A stretch of DNA of 43,548 bases from Patescibacteria group bacterium. GTDB taxonomy: Bacteria; Patescibacteriota; Patescibacteriia; Patescibacteriales; UBA12465. Under the pieces are notes generated by a model. The model was not told where the DNA came from. It worked only from the letters and a program-made list of their open reading frames with translations, and did no database searches. Each line of letters starts with the position of its first letter. The first letter of the stretch is position 1. The DNA is taken from assembly GCA_038323715.1 (NCBI GenBank), contig JBBQHF010000001.1, positions 1 to 43,548 of the forward strand, read 5' to 3'. The position numbers and the translations under genes were made by a program. Positions 6,067-17,112 of this stretch are shown piece after piece.

Positions 6067-6831
6067 ATGAGTATCTTAGCCAGACAAGTGATTTCTTTAT
6101 TCATATACTTTAATCTTTGGTCATTTTTTGCGATAGCTAAAAAGAGAAATGATGTGGCTGATATCGCCTGGGGGACAGGTTTTGTATTACTGGCGTTAAT
6201 CGGGCTAATTTTTAACCCAACTATTAGAATGCAAGTTATTGCTATCGTTGTTATAGTTTGGGGAATGAGGCTAGCTATTCATATCGGAACCCGTTTTGCT
6301 AAAAGTGATAGCGAGGATAAACGATATGTATTAATGCGCAGTGGTTGGAAGGGAAAAGAAGCATTAAATTCTTGGTTTAGAATTTTTATGTTGCAGGGCT
6401 TATTGTTATTTTTTGTAGCAATGAGTATTATTGTTGTCGCTAACTTTGATAAGGGAGGTTGGAATTACGGACTTATTTTTGGTTTTTTGATTTGGGTTAT
6501 TGGGTTTGTTTTTGAAGTTGTTGGTGATAATCAATTAAAAAAATTTGTGGCTACAAAAAAGCAAAGTGGTGATATTATGAAAACAGGTCTTTGGAAATAT
6601 TCAAGGCACCCAAATTATTTTGGAGAAGCAGTGATGTGGTGGGGCATATGGGTAATGACTTGGGGGGTAGAGTATTTTTATCTTGGTATTATTGGGCCAG
6701 TACTCATTACATATTTACTGCGTTTTGTGTCCGGCGTTCCCATGGCAGAAAAAAGATATGCAGACAACCAAGAGTTTATTGAATATAAAAAAAAGACGCC
6801 GCCAATGATTCCAAATTTTTTTATAAAATAA
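6067..6831 (+). CDS. DUF1295 family membrane protein (steroid 5-alpha reductase/ICMT-like fold)
   Basis: 'DIAWG', 'WGMRLAIH', 'EDKRY', '[14 protein letters not shown]', 'SGVPMAEK'. Confidence 0.92.
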
Positions 6832-6845
6832 TTTATTGATGAACT

Positions 6846-8096
6846 ATGAAAAAAAAACTAGCCATTGTGGGTACCGGTATCTCGGCGATGACTTGCGCAC
6901 ATTATCTTAAAAATGATTTTGATATTACAATTTTTGATAAAAATGATTATCCTGGAGGGCATACTCACACTCATAAAATAGAAGAAGGGGGGCACAAGTT
7001 CACGATTGATACAGGTTTTATTGTTTTTAATAAGGAAACATATGTACATATGTTAGAGATGTTTAAAGATCTCGGCATAGAAAAGAGAAATAGTAACATG
7101 TCTTTTTCAGTATTTAATAAAAATACAAATTTACAGTATGCTGGAACAAATTTTAGTACTATTTTTGCTCAAAAGAATAATATATTTTCTTTGAAATATT
7201 GGAAGTTTTTACTTGATATTAAAAAATTTTTTACAATCGCCCTGGCTGATTATCATTCTATTATTGGGACCGATGAAACCATCGCTGCTTATTGTAAGCG
7301 TAATGGGTTATCTGATTTTTTTATCAAAAATTATTTAGCACCAATGTCGGCTGCTGTTTGGTCTACTTCCCAAAAAGAAGCTTATAATTTTCCAATAGCA
7401 CTGCTGCTACCGTTTTTTTATAATCATGGGTTGCTACAAGCCTCAGGCCAGTATCAGTGGTATACGGTTAAAGGAGGCTCCAATACTTATACTAAAAAAA
7501 TATTAGAGAATAAAGAAATTAATCTGCATCTAAATGAAGAGGCACTGTTAGTAACGGAAAATAGCGATGGCGTATATTTAAAAACAGAGAAAGGCGAATA
7601 TAATTTTGATTATATGGTTTTGGCTAGTCATGCCGACGAAAGTTTAAAGATTGCCTCTAGTCTGCCGGGCGAAAAAAAGAAAATGCTAAGTGCTTTTAGC
7701 TATAATCCTAATTTAGCCGTGCTTCATACCGATGACAGTATAATGCCCAAAGTAAAAAAGGTTTGGTCAGCCTGGAATCAGATTATAGAGAAGGGGCGCG
7801 AAGAAATATCCTCAACGGTCTATTGGGTTAATAAATTACAGGACATAAAGTCAAAAACTAATTATTTTATTTCTGTTAATCCGACCGAAAAAATAAAAGA
7901 AGAAAAGATAATCAAAAGAATACAGTATCAACATCCAAATTTTACAGTTCATAATTTTGCTTTACAGAAACATCTTCAGGATTTGAATAAAAACACAAAA
8001 ATATTTTTTGCCGGAGCATATTTTGGTCATGGTTTTCATGAGGATGGCGTCAGGGCGGGGTTGGAGGCGGTTAGACAATTAAAAGCTAAATTATGA
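6846..8096 (+). CDS. FAD-dependent oxidoreductase, COG2907 type (UfaD-like)
   Basis: GTGISA dinucleotide motif, GGHTHT, DTGFIVFNxxTY, WSAWN, GAYFGHGFHEDG. Confidence 0.9.
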   Translation: MKKKLAIVGTGISAMTCAHYLKNDFDITIFDKNDYPGGHTHTHKIEEGGHKFTIDTGFIVFNKETYVHMLEMFKDLGIEKRNSNMSFSVFNKNTNLQYAGTNFSTIFAQKNNIFSLKYWKFLLDIKKFFTIALADYHSIIGTDETIAAYCKRNGLSDFFIKNYLAPMSAAVWSTSQKEAYNFPIALLLPFFYNHGLLQASGQYQWYTVKGGSNTYTKKILENKEINLHLNEEALLVTENSDGVYLKTEKGEYNFDYMVLASHADESLKIASSLPGEKKKMLSAFSYNPNLAVLHTDDSIMPKVKKVWSAWNQIIEKGREEISSTVYWVNKLQDIKSKTNYFISVNPTEKIKEEKIIKRIQYQHPNFTVHNFALQKHLQDLNKNTKIFFAGAYFGHGFHEDGVRAGLEAVRQLKAKL

Positions 8097-8941
8097 AAAT
8101 GAATTCTTGCATTTATAAAATTAAAATCGATCATGTTAGAGTTAAGCCTCAAAAAAACTCATTCAGTTATGGGGGTTATTTTGTATATTTAGACCTGGAT
8201 GAGCTGGCCGAGATAAATAAAAAATATTTTTTGTTTGGCCTAAATAAGGGAAATCTTTTTAGTTTTTATGACCAGGATCATTTTCAGTTCATTCAAAATA
8301 AAAATAAAACATCCGACATCATTTTAAAAGAGAAGGTTAAATATGACGCGCACAAGTATGTTGAAAAAAATACTAAAGAAAGAATTAAAATCATGATAGA
8401 TGATTTGGGGCTTGGTTTTGAATTGGGCAGTGTTTTTATTCTAACTAACTTAAGAAATTTTGGGCATATCTTCAATCCAGTAAGTTTTTATTATTGTTTT
8501 GATACCGAGGGTAAATTTAGAACATTGTTTAGCGAAGTTAATAATACCTTCCATGATCAAAAGATGTATTATGTAAAAATAGATAATCCTAATGGTTTAT
8601 TTTTTGAATCTAAGCAGAAAAAAAATTATTATATTTCGCCATTTACCGGAACTGAAAATACGCTCCATTGGAAGTTTCAACTACCGACTGAATCGCTTTT
8701 TATGAGTATAAATTCCTTAAAGGACAATGGAGTGGAACTAACCACAGTCTTGAGAGGGAAGCGGAAGGAAATAAGTAATTTTGCTTTTGTGTATTTACTT
8801 TTTAGATACCCTGCATATACGGTTATGATTGTTTTTAGAATACATTATCAAGCATTAAAACTATGGCTTAAGAAGGTCCCGTTTAGCGAAAAAGCTGAAA
8901 CTGATGAAAAAATTGTAAACAATATAAATAAAAATACATGA
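8093..8941 (+). CDS. DUF1365 family protein (UfaO-like)
   Basis: HxRxxP, FNPVSFYYC, EVNNTF, YISPF, IHYQALKLWLK; ATGA overlap with the upstream gene. Confidence 0.92.
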   Translation: MKMNSCIYKIKIDHVRVKPQKNSFSYGGYFVYLDLDELAEINKKYFLFGLNKGNLFSFYDQDHFQFIQNKNKTSDIILKEKVKYDAHKYVEKNTKERIKIMIDDLGLGFELGSVFILTNLRNFGHIFNPVSFYYCFDTEGKFRTLFSEVNNTFHDQKMYYVKIDNPNGLFFESKQKKNYYISPFTGTENTLHWKFQLPTESLFMSINSLKDNGVELTTVLRGKRKEISNFAFVYLLFRYPAYTVMIVFRIHYQALKLWLKKVPFSEKAETDEKIVNNINKNT

Positions 8942-10155
8942 TAAACATATACCAAAAAATATTTTTTTTATTATTTAATAGCAAAAATATAGAGGGCGTT
9001 TTAGAGTTGGATATAGATGGTAGAAAGCATAAATTAGGCAATGAATTAGTATCGGGAAAAAGAGATAAGATTTCTGGAATTGAAATTAAAATATTAGATA
9101 ATAGATTTTTTAGAAGGGTGATTTTGTTTGGCGACATCGGTTTTGGTGAATCTTTTTTTAAAAAATATTTTTCTACTAGTAATTTAGATGATGTTTTAAA
9201 ATTTTTTATTCAAAACAGAGAACATATTCCAGGCTTTAATGCTAAAAATCCTTTATTTTTTTTGTTTGAGTGGACAAAGAGCTTGTCTCGCGTATTGCAT
9301 TTATTAAATAAAAATACAAAAAAAGGAAGCAGAAGAAATATCAAAAAACATTATGATGTTTCTAATGATTTTTATAGTCTTTGGTTAGATGAAACAATGG
9401 CATATTCAGCCGCTATTTTTGAAAATGGTCTTGACTTAAAAGATGCTCAAATAAATAAATATAGAACAATTTGTGATAAGTTGAAGTTAAATAAAAACGA
9501 CCATCTTCTTGAAATTGGTAGTGGTTGGGGAGGCTTTGCAATTTTTGCTGCTAAAAATTATGGTTGCCGAATAACCACAATTACAATATCTAAAGAGCAA
9601 TTTTATTTTGCAAAGGAAAAAATTAAAAACGAGGGCCTGGGAGATAAGATAGAAATAAGGCTAGAAGATTATCGCGATTTAGACGGCCAATATGATAAGA
9701 TAGTTTCCATTGAGATGATGGAGGCCCTGGGGAACGAATATGTTGGGCTATTTGTAAAGAAATGCCATGATTTGTTAAAGATGGAAGGGCTAATTTGTTA
9801 TCAATGCATTACTTTCCCGGATAAACAGTTTAAAGATTATTTAAAAAATAATAATTATATAAAAAAATATATATTTCCTGGCGGAGAATTAATTTCTATC
9901 GCTCAACTGAAAAAGGAAATAAAAAAGTTAACAAATCTTTACGTGCTAGACATAGAGAGTATCGGTCTTGATTATGCTAAGACTTTAGATTTGTGGAAAG
10001 AAAATTTTGTTAGGCAGAAAGATAAAATTTTAAAACTCGGTTTTGATGATGAGTTTTGTAAAAAATGGTTGTACTATTTTATTTATTGTAAAGTGGGCTT
10101 TGAAACTAGATATTTAGATGATGTTCAGATTGTAATTCATAAAATTGAAGCATGA
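8938..10155 (+). CDS. cfa: Cyclopropane-fatty-acyl-phospholipid synthase family SAM methyltransferase (Cfa/UfaM-like)
   Basis: HYDVSNDFY, MAYSAA, LEIGSGWGG, DYRD, SIEMMEA, YIFPGG. Confidence 0.92.
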   Translation: MINIYQKIFFLLFNSKNIEGVLELDIDGRKHKLGNELVSGKRDKISGIEIKILDNRFFRRVILFGDIGFGESFFKKYFSTSNLDDVLKFFIQNREHIPGFNAKNPLFFLFEWTKSLSRVLHLLNKNTKKGSRRNIKKHYDVSNDFYSLWLDETMAYSAAIFENGLDLKDAQINKYRTICDKLKLNKNDHLLEIGSGWGGFAIFAAKNYGCRITTITISKEQFYFAKEKIKNEGLGDKIEIRLEDYRDLDGQYDKIVSIEMMEALGNEYVGLFVKKCHDLLKMEGLICYQCITFPDKQFKDYLKNNNYIKKYIFPGGELISIAQLKKEIKKLTNLYVLDIESIGLDYAKTLDLWKENFVRQKDKILKLGFDDEFCKKWLYYFIYCKVGFETRYLDDVQIVIHKIEA

Positions 10156-12731: not shown

Positions 12732-12855
12732 ATATAGGAATATAATAGGCCAACCAAAGATTAAAGGCAATATTACGCTTGGAAATGATTGGTTTTTTGG
12801 TTGATTAATGATAGAGTATTGTTTACAATGTATTAAGTGAACAAAGCTTTAAATT

Positions 12856-13158
12856 ATGTCTCAAAATGGAATAGTAAATTATATAGTTGTTTTTTTATTA
12901 ATTATAAATGTTATTGCTTTTCTAATAATGTTTATTGATAAAAATAAATCTAGAAATTCCGATTTGTCTAGAATCTCTGAGGGGATGATGTTTTTTCTAG
13001 CTTCCGTTTTCGGTAGCTTTGGAGTTTACTTGGGAATGTTTGCTTTTAGACATAAGACTAAAAAATGGTATTTTTTAGTTGGCGTTCCCTTATTAATGCT
13101 TCAAAATCTCGCTTTTGCTTATTTGTGTTATTTATTTCTTTCTAACCAATTAAACTAA
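12856..13158 (+). CDS. DUF1294 family membrane protein
   Basis: 'DKxKS...RISE...GSFG...GMFAFRHKTKKWYF'. Confidence 0.9.
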   Translation: MSQNGIVNYIVVFLLIINVIAFLIMFIDKNKSRNSDLSRISEGMMFFLASVFGSFGVYLGMFAFRHKTKKWYFLVGVPLLMLQNLAFAYLCYLFLSNQLN

Positions 13159-14450
13159 TGTCTATTAATACTAAATTCGGTTTGAAACCCGGACAACTGA
13201 TAGGGTCCTTAGCTATTATGCTCGCTGCTTTATTTTGGAGCATTGATGGTTTATTTATTAGACCAAAGTTCTATATATTGCCGGCCGAACTAGTTGTTTT
13301 TTTGGAACACTTTTTGGGTTTTATAGTCTTGAGCCCATTTATTTTCTTATCTTGGCATAAAATTAAATCCTTGAGCACTAAAGGCTGGTTGGCCCTTGGC
13401 TGGATTAGTTTGTTTGGAGGGTTGATAGGGACTATTTTTATTACCAAAGCTTTTTTTGCGGCGATGGACGGAGAAGTTAGTTTTTCTACTGTAGTTATCT
13501 TACAAAAATTACAACCAATTTTTGCTTTGCTACTTGCGCGGATGATATTGAAGGAAAAGCTTAACAAGAAATTTTATGTTTGGGCGCTAATCGCTATTAT
13601 CGCTGGTTATTTTATTGCCTTCGCCAAAACAGGCTTAGACATTTTTTCTATTAACTGGTTGCACAATGGTGCTTTGTTTGCTTTTATTGCCGCTTTTGCT
13701 TTCGGCTCTTCTACGGTTTTTGGAAAAAGAATCTCCAATCATCTTGATTATAAGGCGGTCGCCGCTCTTCGCTTCGGGTTAACTTCTGTTTTAGCAATTA
13801 TTTTAGTATTGTTAACCGGGGCATTTAGAAATTTTGGTTCTGTTAGCTCAACGCAGTGGGGCCTCTTAGGAATTATAGTTTTGACTTCCGGCGCGGGCTC
13901 AATGTTTATTTATTATTTTGGCTTACGCCGCATTCCTGCTTCATCGGCGACGATTCTTGAACTTTTTTGGCCTTTTTCTACGATAATATTAGATTATATA
14001 TTTAATCACAATTATCTTAATTTTACTCAACTCGTTGCCTTAGCGGTATTGCTATTTGCTTTTTATAAAATTTCTTTTTTAGGTAAATTGAAAAAAACTA
14101 TTTTTGTGGGCAAGGTTATTCATGGCCAGGGAAGAGGAAAATTATTAGGCTTTCCAACGGCTAATTTAGATAAAGTTGATTTAGATATTTCTCATGGAGT
14201 GTATGCAGTTAAAGTTTTTTTTGACGGAAAGACATATTTTGGTTTGATGCATTTCGGATTTAAGGATGTATTTAAGGAGGAGGTTTCTTTGGAGGTTTTA
14301 ATTAAAGATTTTACTGGTGATATTTATGGCGAAAGTTTAGAAGTTGAAGTTATAGAAAGAATAAGAGATTTGCAAAAATTTGAAAACCCAGAATTGCTGG
14401 TAGCAGCAATAAAAGATGATTTAAAATTCTTTGACTCTAAACCATTATGA
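13158..14450 (+). CDS. DMT/EamA transporter fused to a C-terminal riboflavin kinase domain
   Basis: ~10 TM EamA region (QKLQPIF..LARMILKEK), then GKVIHGQGRGKLLGFPTANL, GVY, LEV, DFTGDIYG, RIR...KF. Confidence 0.88.
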   Translation: MSINTKFGLKPGQLIGSLAIMLAALFWSIDGLFIRPKFYILPAELVVFLEHFLGFIVLSPFIFLSWHKIKSLSTKGWLALGWISLFGGLIGTIFITKAFFAAMDGEVSFSTVVILQKLQPIFALLLARMILKEKLNKKFYVWALIAIIAGYFIAFAKTGLDIFSINWLHNGALFAFIAAFAFGSSTVFGKRISNHLDYKAVAALRFGLTSVLAIILVLLTGAFRNFGSVSSTQWGLLGIIVLTSGAGSMFIYYFGLRRIPASSATILELFWPFSTIILDYIFNHNYLNFTQLVALAVLLFAFYKISFLGKLKKTIFVGKVIHGQGRGKLLGFPTANLDKVDLDISHGVYAVKVFFDGKTYFGLMHFGFKDVFKEEVSLEVLIKDFTGDIYGESLEVEVIERIRDLQKFENPELLVAAIKDDLKFFDSKPL

Positions 14451-15685
14451 AATATGATTTAGTGATAATTGGTGGCGGGCCATCCGGGCTTATGGCCGCT
14501 TTGCAGGCGACGGAAGCGGGTGCCAAAGTTTTATTGTTGGAAAAAAATTATCGTCTAGGAGTTAAATTGCTTGTGACCGGCGGCGGTCGTTGCAATATTA
14601 CTAATAATATTCCCGATTATCATTTGTTGGCGCAAAATTTTGATGAAGGCGCAAAATTTTTATTATCTACTTTTAGTCGTTTTGGTGTTTTGGAAACTAT
14701 GGCTTTCTTTGAGAGTCGCGGCCTTAAATTAAAAACCGAAAATGATAATAAAGTTTTCCCCGCCAGCGATAAGGGAGCTGATATCCTTAAGGTCTTTATA
14801 GAAGGGATAAAAGATGGGGGTGGAAAAATAAGGACGAATAGTATAGTCAGCGATTTAGAAATTGTGGATCAGAAAATAATTAAGTTGATTTTGGATGGTG
14901 GTGAGGAAATTTTAGCTGATAATTTTTTAATTGCGACTGGAGGTTTGTCTTACCCAGCTACCGGGTCTAGTGGCGATGGTTTAAAATGGTTAAAAAAAAT
15001 TGGTCATCATGTAATAAATACCAGGCCCGCTTTAGCGCCTCTAATCGTGAGCGAAGAATTTGTCAAAAATTTAGAAGGTTTGAGTTTGGAAAATGTAGTT
15101 TTAAATTTGTATTGTGAAAATAAAAAGATTGCTCAAGAAAAAGGCTCGGTCATTTTTACCGCCCGTGGTCTTAGCGGCCCAGCGGCTTTAAACATTAGTC
15201 GCTATGTTGATTTTGGGTCTTCTAAAAATTGGCGCCTGGAAGTAGATTTACAGTTAGATTTTTCTAAAGAAGAATTAGATAAAAAATTAATTAGTTTATT
15301 TGCTACTAGTAACAAATTCTTAAAAAATAATTTGGAAAATTTGTTGCCAACGCGTTTAGCGGAAACTATTTTGTTATTATCAAAAATTAATCCTGAACGC
15401 GCGGCAAATTCTTTAAGTAGAGCTGAGCGCCAAATTTTAGTTGAAACTATAAAGAGTTTTCAGCTTAATGTGTTGCGAGTTGAGGGATATGACAGGGCGA
15501 TGGTGACCGTTGGCGGAGTTGATTTGAAAGAAATTAATCCCAAAACTATGAGATCTAAACTCATTTCTAATTTATTTTTGGCGGGAGAAATTTTAAATAT
15601 TGCTGGACCGACTGGTGGCTACAATCTTCAGGCCGCCTGGAGTACCGGGTTTGCGGTAGGAAACGCAATTAATGCTGAAAAATAA
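14447..15685 (+). CDS. HI0933/YhiN/BaiN-family flavoprotein
   Basis: GGGPSG, TGGGRCNITN, ATGGLSYPATGSSGDG, GLSGPA, GPTGGYNLQAAWSTG. Confidence 0.93.
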   Translation: MKYDLVIIGGGPSGLMAALQATEAGAKVLLLEKNYRLGVKLLVTGGGRCNITNNIPDYHLLAQNFDEGAKFLLSTFSRFGVLETMAFFESRGLKLKTENDNKVFPASDKGADILKVFIEGIKDGGGKIRTNSIVSDLEIVDQKIIKLILDGGEEILADNFLIATGGLSYPATGSSGDGLKWLKKIGHHVINTRPALAPLIVSEEFVKNLEGLSLENVVLNLYCENKKIAQEKGSVIFTARGLSGPAALNISRYVDFGSSKNWRLEVDLQLDFSKEELDKKLISLFATSNKFLKNNLENLLPTRLAETILLLSKINPERAANSLSRAERQILVETIKSFQLNVLRVEGYDRAMVTVGGVDLKEINPKTMRSKLISNLFLAGEILNIAGPTGGYNLQAAWSTGFAVGNAINAEK

Positions 15686-15721
15686 TAATCCTGTTGCTAT
15701 TATTTTAGTTTGTCGCTCTAT

Positions 15722-15750
15722 TTGACAAAATAGAGCTTTTTTATTAAGAT
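15722..15750 (+). promoter_or_regulatory. Sigma70-type promoter for purCE-purM
   Basis: TTGACA(15722-15727)-17 nt-TAAGAT(15745-15750). Confidence 0.65.
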
Positions 15751-15807: not shown

Positions 15808-17112
15808 ATGAAGAAAAAAGAAGAGTTGTATCGCGGTAAAACCAAGGCGGTTTTTGCGACAGATGATCAAAGTGTAGTTCTATTGCAGAACTTTGATGCT
15901 TTAACTAAGTTTGACGATCCTAGCCAAACTAAGCAAATGACAGGTAAGGCCGTTCACGCCACCAACACAACCTGTAACGTGTTTAGATTGCTACAAAAAG
16001 CTGGAATTCCAGTGGCGTTCAGAGAGCAAATTTCGGAAACGGAATTTACAACGGAAAAGTGTACTATGATTCCGCTTGAAGTAATTGCCCGTCGTTATGC
16101 GGTGGGTAGCTATTTAAAGCGTTTTCCTGGATTGGCTGCTTCTTCCGGTGAAACTCCAAAACGTTTTCACCGTTTAGTTTTTGAATTGTTTTTGAAAACT
16201 ACGGGAAAGGTTATTAAATCTTTTGCGGGCGAAACAATCGGCGAGGTGTCAGTTGAAGACCCATTTATTGAACTGAGCAAGCTTGGTGACATATTCCATT
16301 TGTGCAACCCGAAGCTTCCCAGTTGGGAAGATGGCCATGATTTAGCGGTTGACGTTAATGCAAATTATATTTTGCCCGATGTTGAAGGCCGGAGTTATTT
16401 ACCCCAAATTGAGCAAATTACCAGAAAAACGTTTCTTCTGTTGGAGGGCGCCTGGAGTCAACTCGGGTTTCGTTTAATTGATTTCAAGATTGAGTTTGGA
16501 GTAACGAGTTCCGGGACATTGGTTGTTGCTGATGTTATTGATAACGACAGCTGGCGCTTGCGGACTTCAGATTGGGAAGAAGTCTCCAAACAATGTTTCA
16601 GAGACAACGCGAGCATGGAAGAAATTGGTGACAAGTATGCGATGGTTAGTAAGCTGACCGACTCTTTCCGTTTGCCAAAACAAAAAATTGTGATTTGGCG
16701 CGGTTCTCAAAACGATTCCAGTATTGAAACAATTTTTGTAAAAAGTGCTGGAATTACCGGAGAGGACATAGTTGTGTCAGGGCATAAATCTCCGAGCGTT
16801 TGTCTTCAGACTTTGGAAAACATTCTTAGTAGCTCTCCTGAGGGAGGCGTTATCATTGCGATGGTGGGCATGAGTAATGGCTTGGGCCCGATTCTTGCCG
16901 CGCGTACTAGTTGGCCGGTAATTACCGTTCCTCTGACAGCAGCTGAAAATTCCATTGATATATTCAGCAGTTTGAATGTTCCCAGTAACGTGCCTTTACT
17001 GACCATTATCTCTAAAAAGAATGCTTTATTGGCGGCGTTGAATATTCTGGCGCAGAAAAATCCTTACGCCTATATGTTGAGGCAGTATGACCTTGAAAAT
17101 TTGGATGTCTAA
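15808..17112 (+). CDS. purC: Bifunctional SAICAR synthetase / class II AIR carboxylase (PurC-PurE fusion, PAICS-like)
   Basis: LYRGKTK, MIPLEVIARR..GS, DFKIEFG, ADVIDNDSWRL; C-terminal SGHKSP, GMSNGLGP, PSNVP. Confidence 0.9.
   Translation: MKKKEELYRGKTKAVFATDDQSVVLLQNFDALTKFDDPSQTKQMTGKAVHATNTTCNVFRLLQKAGIPVAFREQISETEFTTEKCTMIPLEVIARRYAVGSYLKRFPGLAASSGETPKRFHRLVFELFLKTTGKVIKSFAGETIGEVSVEDPFIELSKLGDIFHLCNPKLPSWEDGHDLAVDVNANYILPDVEGRSYLPQIEQITRKTFLLLEGAWSQLGFRLIDFKIEFGVTSSGTLVVADVIDNDSWRLRTSDWEEVSKQCFRDNASMEEIGDKYAMVSKLTDSFRLPKQKIVIWRGSQNDSSIETIFVKSAGITGEDIVVSGHKSPSVCLQTLENILSSSPEGGVIIAMVGMSNGLGPILAARTSWPVITVPLTAAENSIDIFSSLNVPSNVPLLTIISKKNALLAALNILAQKNPYAYMLRQYDLENLDV

Follow-up and report, generated by a model that had tools for sequence, protein, structure and literature searches.

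Patescibacteria lack most vitamin pathways, and the ways in which they acquire their cofactors are largely inferred. How does such a cell come by flavin mononucleotide (FMN) as well as flavin adenine dinucleotide (FAD)? The question is raised by a gene at positions 13158..14450, on the forward strand, of a stretch of 43,548 nucleotides (hereafter the window) that corresponds to positions 1 to 43,548 of contig JBBQHF010000001.1, in assembly GCA_038323715.1 of a Patescibacteria group bacterium (Patescibacteriales, UBA12465). The gene is one open reading frame (ORF) of 430 amino acids with an ATG start, and it joins an ImpX-type permease of the drug/metabolite transporter (DMT) superfamily to an ATP-type riboflavin kinase. 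An initial annotation, made from the letters alone, had proposed that this protein couples riboflavin uptake to its conversion to FMN in an auxotroph, and this prediction is supported by the conservation of the fusion, its kinship to ImpX, its catalytic residues, and a genome in which neither the riboflavin-synthesis families tested nor a second kinase was matched. We find that the fusion is real, conserved and selected. It is an undescribed combination of two known kinds of protein whose predicted function is well supported by comparison, and we consider it quite probable that it constitutes a one-polypeptide riboflavin salvage module, which would import the vitamin and trap it in the cell. 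The initial annotation knew of no characterised example; likewise, a literature search through listings, abstracts and excerpts of publications returned no paper on a fusion of a permease and a riboflavin kinase.

Two protein families in one reading frame

The permease half spans residues 1-311 (13158..14090, forward strand) and is made of two EamA repeats with ten helices, the EamA model (PF00892) aligning to the protein in two stretches (E 1.8e-29, 103.1 bits against a Pfam cut-off of 28.2). After a short linker comes the riboflavin kinase half, residues 312-430 (14091..14447, same strand), in which Flavokinase (PF01687) covers residues 316-423 with E 5.2e-30 and 104.7 bits, the cut-off being 19.6. 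The continuous frame first read here, an EamA transporter followed from about position 14090 by a flavokinase, is borne out by these matches, which lie far above their cut-offs, and by the position of the junction, residue ~312 corresponding to base 14091. About ten transmembrane segments had been counted, and indeed hydropathy gives 9 clear segments together with a weaker ninth helix, while the AlphaFold2 model of the fusion, built on an alignment of 50 fused relatives (mean predicted local distance difference test score 90.4; predicted template modelling score, pTM, 0.89), has ten long helices followed by a beta-rich domain. In Foldseek searches the permease part of this model finds YddG (5i20, template modelling (TM) score 0.77 by target) and LicB (7paf, 0.82), as well as TPT and SLC35 carriers, and the kinase part finds human riboflavin kinase (1q9s, TM 0.71 by target, root-mean-square deviation 2.0), as well as the proteins of Corynebacterium ammoniagenes (5a89) and Thermotoga maritima (1s4m). 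The Lys/Arg-rich loops of the permease half alternate as expected for a protein with its N- and C-termini inside, and since this positive-inside pattern puts both permease ends inside the cell, the kinase half is predicted to be cytoplasmic, where ATP is.

The kinase half has the same Pfam family, fold and key residues as the kinase module of RibF (T. maritima 1mrz/1s4m, C. ammoniagenes 5a89, Streptococcus pneumoniae 3op1). RibF, however, carries an FMN-adenylyltransferase half, whereas the fusion has a membrane permease as its N-terminal partner and a flavin-side loop of its own form. We searched the fusion protein for this N-terminal FMN-adenylyltransferase, or FAD-synthetase, domain (PF06574) with Pfam and NCBIfam and found none. 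The NCBIfam RibF models align to the protein only by their C-terminal halves and far below their cut-offs (TIGR00083, for example, by positions 172-283 of 290), so the FAD-synthetase half is missing, as had been noted at the outset. Since the search for an adenylyltransferase domain came back negative, the fusion is no RibF. The monofunctional eukaryotic riboflavin kinase (human 1q9s/1nb0) is also of the same Pfam family and fold as the kinase half. By sequence and fold, then, the protein is a member of the DMT superfamily joined to a member of PF01687, and it is predicted to work like ImpX combined with a monofunctional riboflavin kinase.

The best solved relative of the kinase half is the RibF of T. 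maritima (1mrz, E 1.9e-19). The GFPTAN motif and the Glu of an LEV motif, both claimed in the initial annotation, are found at residues 331-336 and 378-380, and in HMMER alignments T334, N336, E379 and R403 of the fusion correspond to T208, N210, E268 and R292 of C. ammoniagenes RibF, of which E268 is named as a mutagenesis target in PDB titles. We take the Thr and Asn of PTAN, this Glu and the conserved Arg to be catalytic. Among 50 fused proteins that reach down to 33% identity, T334, G347, E379, R403 and D421 are kept in all 50, and N336 in 48. The kinase half keeps its catalytic residues, and it is presumably an active enzyme. The annotation had also singled out the flavin-side loop, HFGFKDV at residues 365-371, as unusual. 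It does depart from the MNVGFRPTV of T. maritima, but the departure is a mild one, since the same loop varies among the S. pneumoniae, C. ammoniagenes and human kinases as well, with the Gly alone in common. The loop is conserved in its own form, with H365 in 42/50 and a Lys or Arg at position 369 in 42/50 of the fused proteins.

The fused state is widely shared. EamA and Flavokinase (PF00892 and PF01687) occur together in all of the 120 listed relatives of the fusion, which are 61-100% identical to it and were listed out of 961 proteins passing E 0.001. Among 120 further genomes sampled from the order, a full-length fused frame is present in 19, which include other taxonomic families, and one more has a frame that is cut short. 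In addition, contigs of one public sequencing run, possibly the source sample and thus not independent of the assembly, span 12800-14285 with 0 differences, and the domain junction is bridged. Two minor runs reach short parts only, and no RNA run was listed as holding the stretch.

The permease substrate and the flavin metabolism of the genome

The substrate of the permease half is approached through ImpX. The impX gene of Fusobacterium nucleatum is under the control of an FMN riboswitch, and ImpX rescues a riboflavin-auxotrophic E. coli ribB mutant (PMC4418817; this and the other paper cited here are drawn on in excerpts). The primers used to clone it are printed in the same paper (PMC4418817), and the genomic part of the forward one matched an F. 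nucleatum chromosome, where an FMN riboswitch (RF00050, 119 bits) lies downstream of the primer site, followed by a single DMT ORF of 299 amino acids. This protein aligns to the permease half over residues 16-294 (38% identity, E 1e-56, 281 aligned columns); the other DMT protein of the genome that carries the fusion has no match to ImpX (E 0.3). The likeness runs end to end, between two proteins of two EamA repeats and ~300 residues that share family motifs. In trees of 121 permease domains (FastTree) and of 64 (IQ-TREE), ImpX falls in the sister group of the clade of the fusion's permease, with a support of 96-99. Look-alikes of the permease half in the ESM Atlas are generic DMT clusters only. 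Going by sequence and tree, the permease half likely belongs to the ImpX family, of which it lacks the riboswitch hallmark, and we infer that it imports riboflavin. The initial annotation had thought of a RibN-like transporter. The DMT superfamily was right, and RibN has the substrate proposed for the fusion (PMC4418817), but the closest characterised transporter is ImpX, in a comparison from which the RibN sequence was left out. Moreover, RibN is described in the excerpts used as restricted to Proteobacteria (PMC4418817).

The partners of this permease family bear on its substrate too. An exhaustive search with the permease half alone returned 1073 relatives; of the best 150, 114 are 280 residues long or more and 17 are 380 or more. 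Flavokinase is the fusion partner in 15 of these 17 long relatives; of the other two, one carries the unrelated CTP-dependent riboflavin kinase PF01982, the other a HAD hydrolase. The fusion to the CTP-type kinase recurs in 4 of the 120 listed relatives of its representative, P0134 (four protein clusters, 47-49% identical to P0134), and its nearest named unfused relatives come from DPANN archaea and several bacterial phyla. Among the species genomes, a single-sequence search for such CTP-kinase fusions returned nothing, and an alignment search returned split forms only. The association is also found between neighbouring genes: an RbkR-like gene, encoding a winged helix-turn-helix domain and a CTP-type kinase, overlaps the start of an ImpX-like permease gene in 3/3 loci examined, two of them in archaeal bins (an uncultured archaeon and one of the Nanobdellota) and the third in a Cloacimonadota bin (L134:2240-3825, L135:1069-2672 and L140:606-2149). 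To find one permease family paired so repeatedly with riboflavin kinases of two unrelated kinds is strong comparative evidence as to its substrate. The archaeal RbkR and RibK are, like the fusion, cases of a riboflavin kinase wired to riboflavin uptake, but they use CTP and have a non-homologous fold, whereas the kinase of the fusion is of the ATP type. The transporters given for the RbkR regulon are RibU and the major facilitator superfamily protein RibT, with no DMT protein mentioned in the excerpted text (PMC5397151).

Other partners were also encountered. P0183 (574 amino acids), an ImpX-like permease fused to a HAD-family hydrolase, adjoins an unfused relative in the trees. In another family of Patescibacteria, Flavokinase is fused to the C-terminus of the ATPase of an ATP-binding cassette (ABC) transporter, in proteins of 392-427 amino acids (L108:237-1517 on the reverse strand, L109:696-1964 and L110:627-1802 on the forward strand; genomes G047, G019 and G118). 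The gene is preceded by that of an NMT1/THI5-like binding protein, and the riboflavin-binding RibY belongs to COG0715, which is of the NMT1/THI5-like class (PMC4418817). This would be a second kind of fusion between uptake machinery and kinase. Flavokinase was further found fused to a riboflavin synthase with two Lum_binding repeats (L111:659-1771 and L112:551-1720, forward strand, and L113:668-1759, reverse strand; G374, G322 and G268) and to a 5-formyltetrahydrofolate cyclo-ligase (L114:184-1035, reverse strand; G147).

The genome itself, of 860 kb and 95.6% complete, was searched for flavin genes with models that were each positive in control genomes. Flavokinase has a single match, the fusion gene. 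As the initial annotation had suspected, genes of riboflavin synthesis and ribF are missing from it as far as the searches went: lumazine synthase, riboflavin synthase and DHBP synthase have no match in the genome, GTP cyclohydrolase II and RibD not having been searched for, and FAD_syn (PF06574, the RibF-type FAD synthetase) has no match anywhere in it. Nor was there a match in the genome for a CTP-type riboflavin kinase or a RibU-type energy-coupling factor component. Flavins are needed nonetheless. Dus, whose cofactor is FMN, is encoded, and so are FAD-type proteins. The best explanation of this pattern is that the organism is unable to make riboflavin and that the fusion serves as the genome's only recognisable riboflavin kinase and riboflavin transporter.

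If the fusion makes FMN, FAD would have to come from a separate enzyme. The genome encodes two small nucleotidyltransferases, and one of them, a RibL-like protein of 140 amino acids encoded next to metK on the reverse strand (G000 C7:21387-21803; L011:1480-1902), is our best, if tentative, candidate for this FMN adenylyltransferase. Its best solved relative is PDB 3glv (E 1.4e-23), and it is 42% identical to the product of a gene that lies directly upstream of the kinase and permease genes in genome G384. It is present, at 76-82% identity, in 5/5 of the closest fusion-holding genomes, all of them without FAD_syn and one of them a closed chromosome, and among 97 relatives of it, 13 carry the name FAD synthetase or synthase in their source records. 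The NCBIfam matches of this protein are generic only, which counts against its identity as a RibL.

Distribution and the possible coupling of the two halves

Several observations weigh against the salvage module and are best considered together. The first concern ImpX. The paper that describes it set the ortholog cut-off at >38% identity and >=80% coverage (PMC4418817), and the 38% identity of the permease half lies at this cut-off, with a coverage within the range. Allowing up to 2 mismatches, the reverse primer had no match in the F. nucleatum strain used, so the identity of the 299-residue ORF as ImpX rests on the forward primer, the riboswitch and the monocistronic layout. ImpX stands alone behind an FMN riboswitch and, in the excerpts used, is found only in bacteria that make riboflavin (PMC4418817), whereas the fusion has its kinase attached in a genome that showed none of the three synthesis families tested. 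The riboswitch (RF00050), hallmark of ImpX genes, has no match in that whole genome, and it is also absent from 20/20 Bacteroidales loci scanned (of 80 fetched) that hold the unfused relatives closest to ImpX. The flavin-loop motif of the kinase half is unlike that of RibF. Finally, the distribution is patchy near home: a full-length fused frame is present in 4 of 40 sampled genomes of the same family, with no Flavokinase match in the 36 others or in any of the four sampled genomes of the genus, and the HI0933-like FAD flavoprotein, encoded downstream of the fusion in our window, is kept in 21 of these 40 family genomes. The module is therefore dispensable for near relatives, and those that keep the FAD flavoprotein with no Flavokinase match must get FMN and FAD in another way, the direct uptake of these cofactors being one possibility. 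In the same family sample, full-length orthologs of the RibL-like protein occur in five genomes and the kinase in four, with one genome in common. With an overlap of only 1/4, the RibL-like protein was rejected as a phylogenetic-profile partner of the kinase and kept as a candidate.

The distribution at the level of the order is just as uneven. There, 19 genomes have a stand-alone kinase only, three have an unfused permease 60-61% identical to that of the fusion with the kinase on another contig, and of the 121 genomes searched, 78 are without a match. In two genomes of the order a second, diverged fused copy lies in tandem with the first (G459:C10:3679-6238 and G489:C21:14667-17173; the second copy is 46% identical to our query), and the two copies may be paralogues that differ in flavin specificity.

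Split forms are found further away. Across Patescibacteria, none of 400 other sampled genomes has a full-length match to the fusion, and 26 of them have the permease part alone (E 1e-23 or better, a count that omits 13 weaker matches, of 24-32% identity, which are possibly other DMT proteins). In 11 of these 26 a kinase gene is found no more than 500 bases from that of the permease, and in three more it is within ~2 kb; it lies elsewhere in eight, and there is no kinase match in four. The split form shares both protein families and the inferred pathway with the fusion, and in one case a RibL-like gene precedes it, but it consists of two genes, kinase then permease, whereas the fusion is one chain, permease then kinase. 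Indeed, the kinase gene is upstream in 10/10 of the adjacent pairs on the same strand, and Pfam confirmed this order in 5/5 loci examined. The initial annotation had regarded relatives with two separate genes as a possible sign of a lost stop codon. Such relatives exist, but with their genes in the opposite order to the domains, and a simple read-through of the split operon therefore does not account for the fusion. On the permease tree the fused state is scattered: well-supported branches force at least 8 changes, with gains and losses indistinguishable, and a single clade of fused proteins is rejected by the approximately unbiased (AU) test (p 1.6e-11, with a log-likelihood difference of 753).

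How would the salvage module work? The N-terminal ten-helix permease would, as a member of the ImpX family, admit riboflavin. The ATP-dependent kinase, which the positive-inside pattern and the model place on the cytoplasmic side, held by a short linker to the last helix, would then phosphorylate the vitamin to FMN, as its catalytic residues suggest. By analogy with vitamin uptake through a facilitator and a kinase, FMN could not leave the cell, so that uptake would become one-way and ATP would pay for the accumulation. A separate enzyme, for which the RibL-like protein is again a tentative candidate, would make FAD.

Within this scheme the two halves may well act independently, the fusion securing an equal dosage and a membrane location, and riboflavin being released free between them. 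The function would be the same, with no channelling, and this version, whose credit is included in that given to the salvage module itself, is one that we find plausible without quite favouring it. It is in line with the unfused permeases of the 26 sampled genomes, eight of which have their kinase elsewhere, with the three genomes of the order in which the kinase is on another contig, and with the eight or more gains or losses of the fused state. Since split forms are common and the fused state is scattered, the parts can evidently function apart. A fixed arrangement of the halves is suggested, without being shown, by the pTM of the full-length model and by a short linker of nearly fixed length (the span from residue 305 to residue 320 measures 13-18 residues in 48/50 fused proteins). 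At the far end of this line of thought, the kinase would be docked on the inward mouth of the permease and phosphorylate riboflavin upon its release, forming a vitamin 'group translocator' driven by ATP and not by an ion gradient, and it would exemplify a broader rule in Patescibacteria, by which a kinase freed from RibF is repeatedly wired to uptake machinery, be it an ImpX-type permease or, in fusions, a RibXY-like ABC ATPase. We consider this extended proposal doubtful.

Alternatively, the kinase-like domain could be mainly a sensor, which would bind FMN, riboflavin or ATP and gate the permease without being the cell's catalytic kinase. No FMN riboswitch or RbkR-type regulator was matched in the genome, the flavin loop is conserved in a form unlike that of RibF, and there is a precedent for a regulatory kinase domain in the archaeal RbkR, whose binding to DNA is responsive to CTP and FMN (PMC5397151). 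All the catalytic residues are kept, however, and the genome, which has an FMN enzyme to supply, offers no other Flavokinase match, so that a catalytic role is needed; regulation could coexist with it. We hold the sensor to be highly improbable as the main role of the domain.

Slightly harder still to credit is a permease that carries another cargo inward, such as a flavin analogue, FMN or FAD, or that exports flavins, while the kinase works on a pool of its own. The substrates of DMT proteins are very diverse, P0183 is fused to a HAD hydrolase, the diverged tandem copies of two genomes hint at more than one specificity, and RibN is reported to admit FMN as well as riboflavin (PMC4418817). Yet riboflavin is what the riboswitch of ImpX, the two non-homologous riboflavin kinases and the existence of fused as well as operon forms all indicate. 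The import of FMN or FAD would need no kinase, and export makes little sense where the tested synthesis genes were not found.

Lastly, an error of assembly or gene calling, or the loss of a stop codon in a single case, in favour of which there is nothing beyond the fact that the sole run holding the stretch is possibly the source of the assembly, can be dismissed, for the two domains share a frame in all 120 listed relatives and in 19 other genomes of the order, the split relatives have the opposite gene order and the catalytic residues are under selection.

Gene neighbourhood and significance

The fusion gene is flanked by two genes that overlap it. Upstream, at 12856..13158 on the forward strand, lies the gene of a small membrane protein of 100 amino acids with a DUF1294 domain (PF06961, E 4.9e-19), whose stop overlaps the start of the fusion by one base (TAATG), so that the two genes are predicted to be coupled in translation. 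It lies upstream of the fusion in 8/8 of the closest loci, these being the yield of a single-sequence locus search, and its product could be an accessory subunit. Downstream, at 14447..15685 on the same strand, lies the gene of an HI0933-like FAD-binding protein of 412 amino acids (TIGR00275, E 9.3e-128), and the stop of the fusion overlaps its start by ATGA at 14447-14450, exactly as the initial annotation had read. The same annotation had called this neighbour a flavoprotein, with which the TIGR00275 match agrees, but the linkage is confined to the closest relatives. In 7/8 of the closest loci the genes run ABC-F, DUF1294, fusion, flavoprotein; G463 and G528 have the flavoprotein on a different contig from the fusion. 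The flavoprotein of the closest fusion holders (L002-L008) is 57-67% identical to ours; of the four genomes sampled from the genus, three hold it, at 47-52%. The sampled 'genus' may thus be deep, or the block may have a history of its own.

A terminator-like hairpin follows the flavoprotein gene at 15715..15736 on the forward strand (a consensus match only, with a 9-pair stem and then a T run), and this, with the two overlapping junctions, suggests a predicted transcription unit of three genes, DUF1294, fusion and flavoprotein. A promoter-like site precedes the DUF1294 gene at 12801..12829, forward strand (a consensus match only, with 9/12 hexamer matches); the 18 sites of this kind do not amount to an enrichment over shuffles, where the mean is 12.4. 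Elsewhere in the window, positions 6067-10155 of the forward strand hold a run of genes for DUF1295, a flavin-containing amine oxidoreductase, DUF1365 and a cyclopropane-fatty-acid-synthase-like methyltransferase. The amine oxidoreductase (6846-8096) is another FAD-type flavoprotein near the fusion. At 15808-17112, again on the forward strand, a SAICAR synthetase (PurC) is joined to an AIR carboxylase (PurE) in one ORF.

The principle of import followed by trapping has a familiar parallel, since nicotinamide riboside enters the cell by the permease PnuC and is held there through phosphorylation by NadR. PnuC and NadR are separate proteins of other families, whereas the fusion is one chain. For Patescibacteria, the fusion offers a concrete route to vitamin B2, in which a known family of importers and a known kinase come in one chain, in a genome where no synthesis genes of the families tested and no RibF were detected. 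It also extends the ImpX family, reported so far only from bacteria proficient in riboflavin, to auxotrophs and archaeal relatives, and its patchy distribution raises the question of how close relatives obtain their FMN and FAD. If the halves are physically coupled, the protein would provide a simple model for transport driven by metabolic trapping, and it may become a compact part for flavin uptake in engineered strains.

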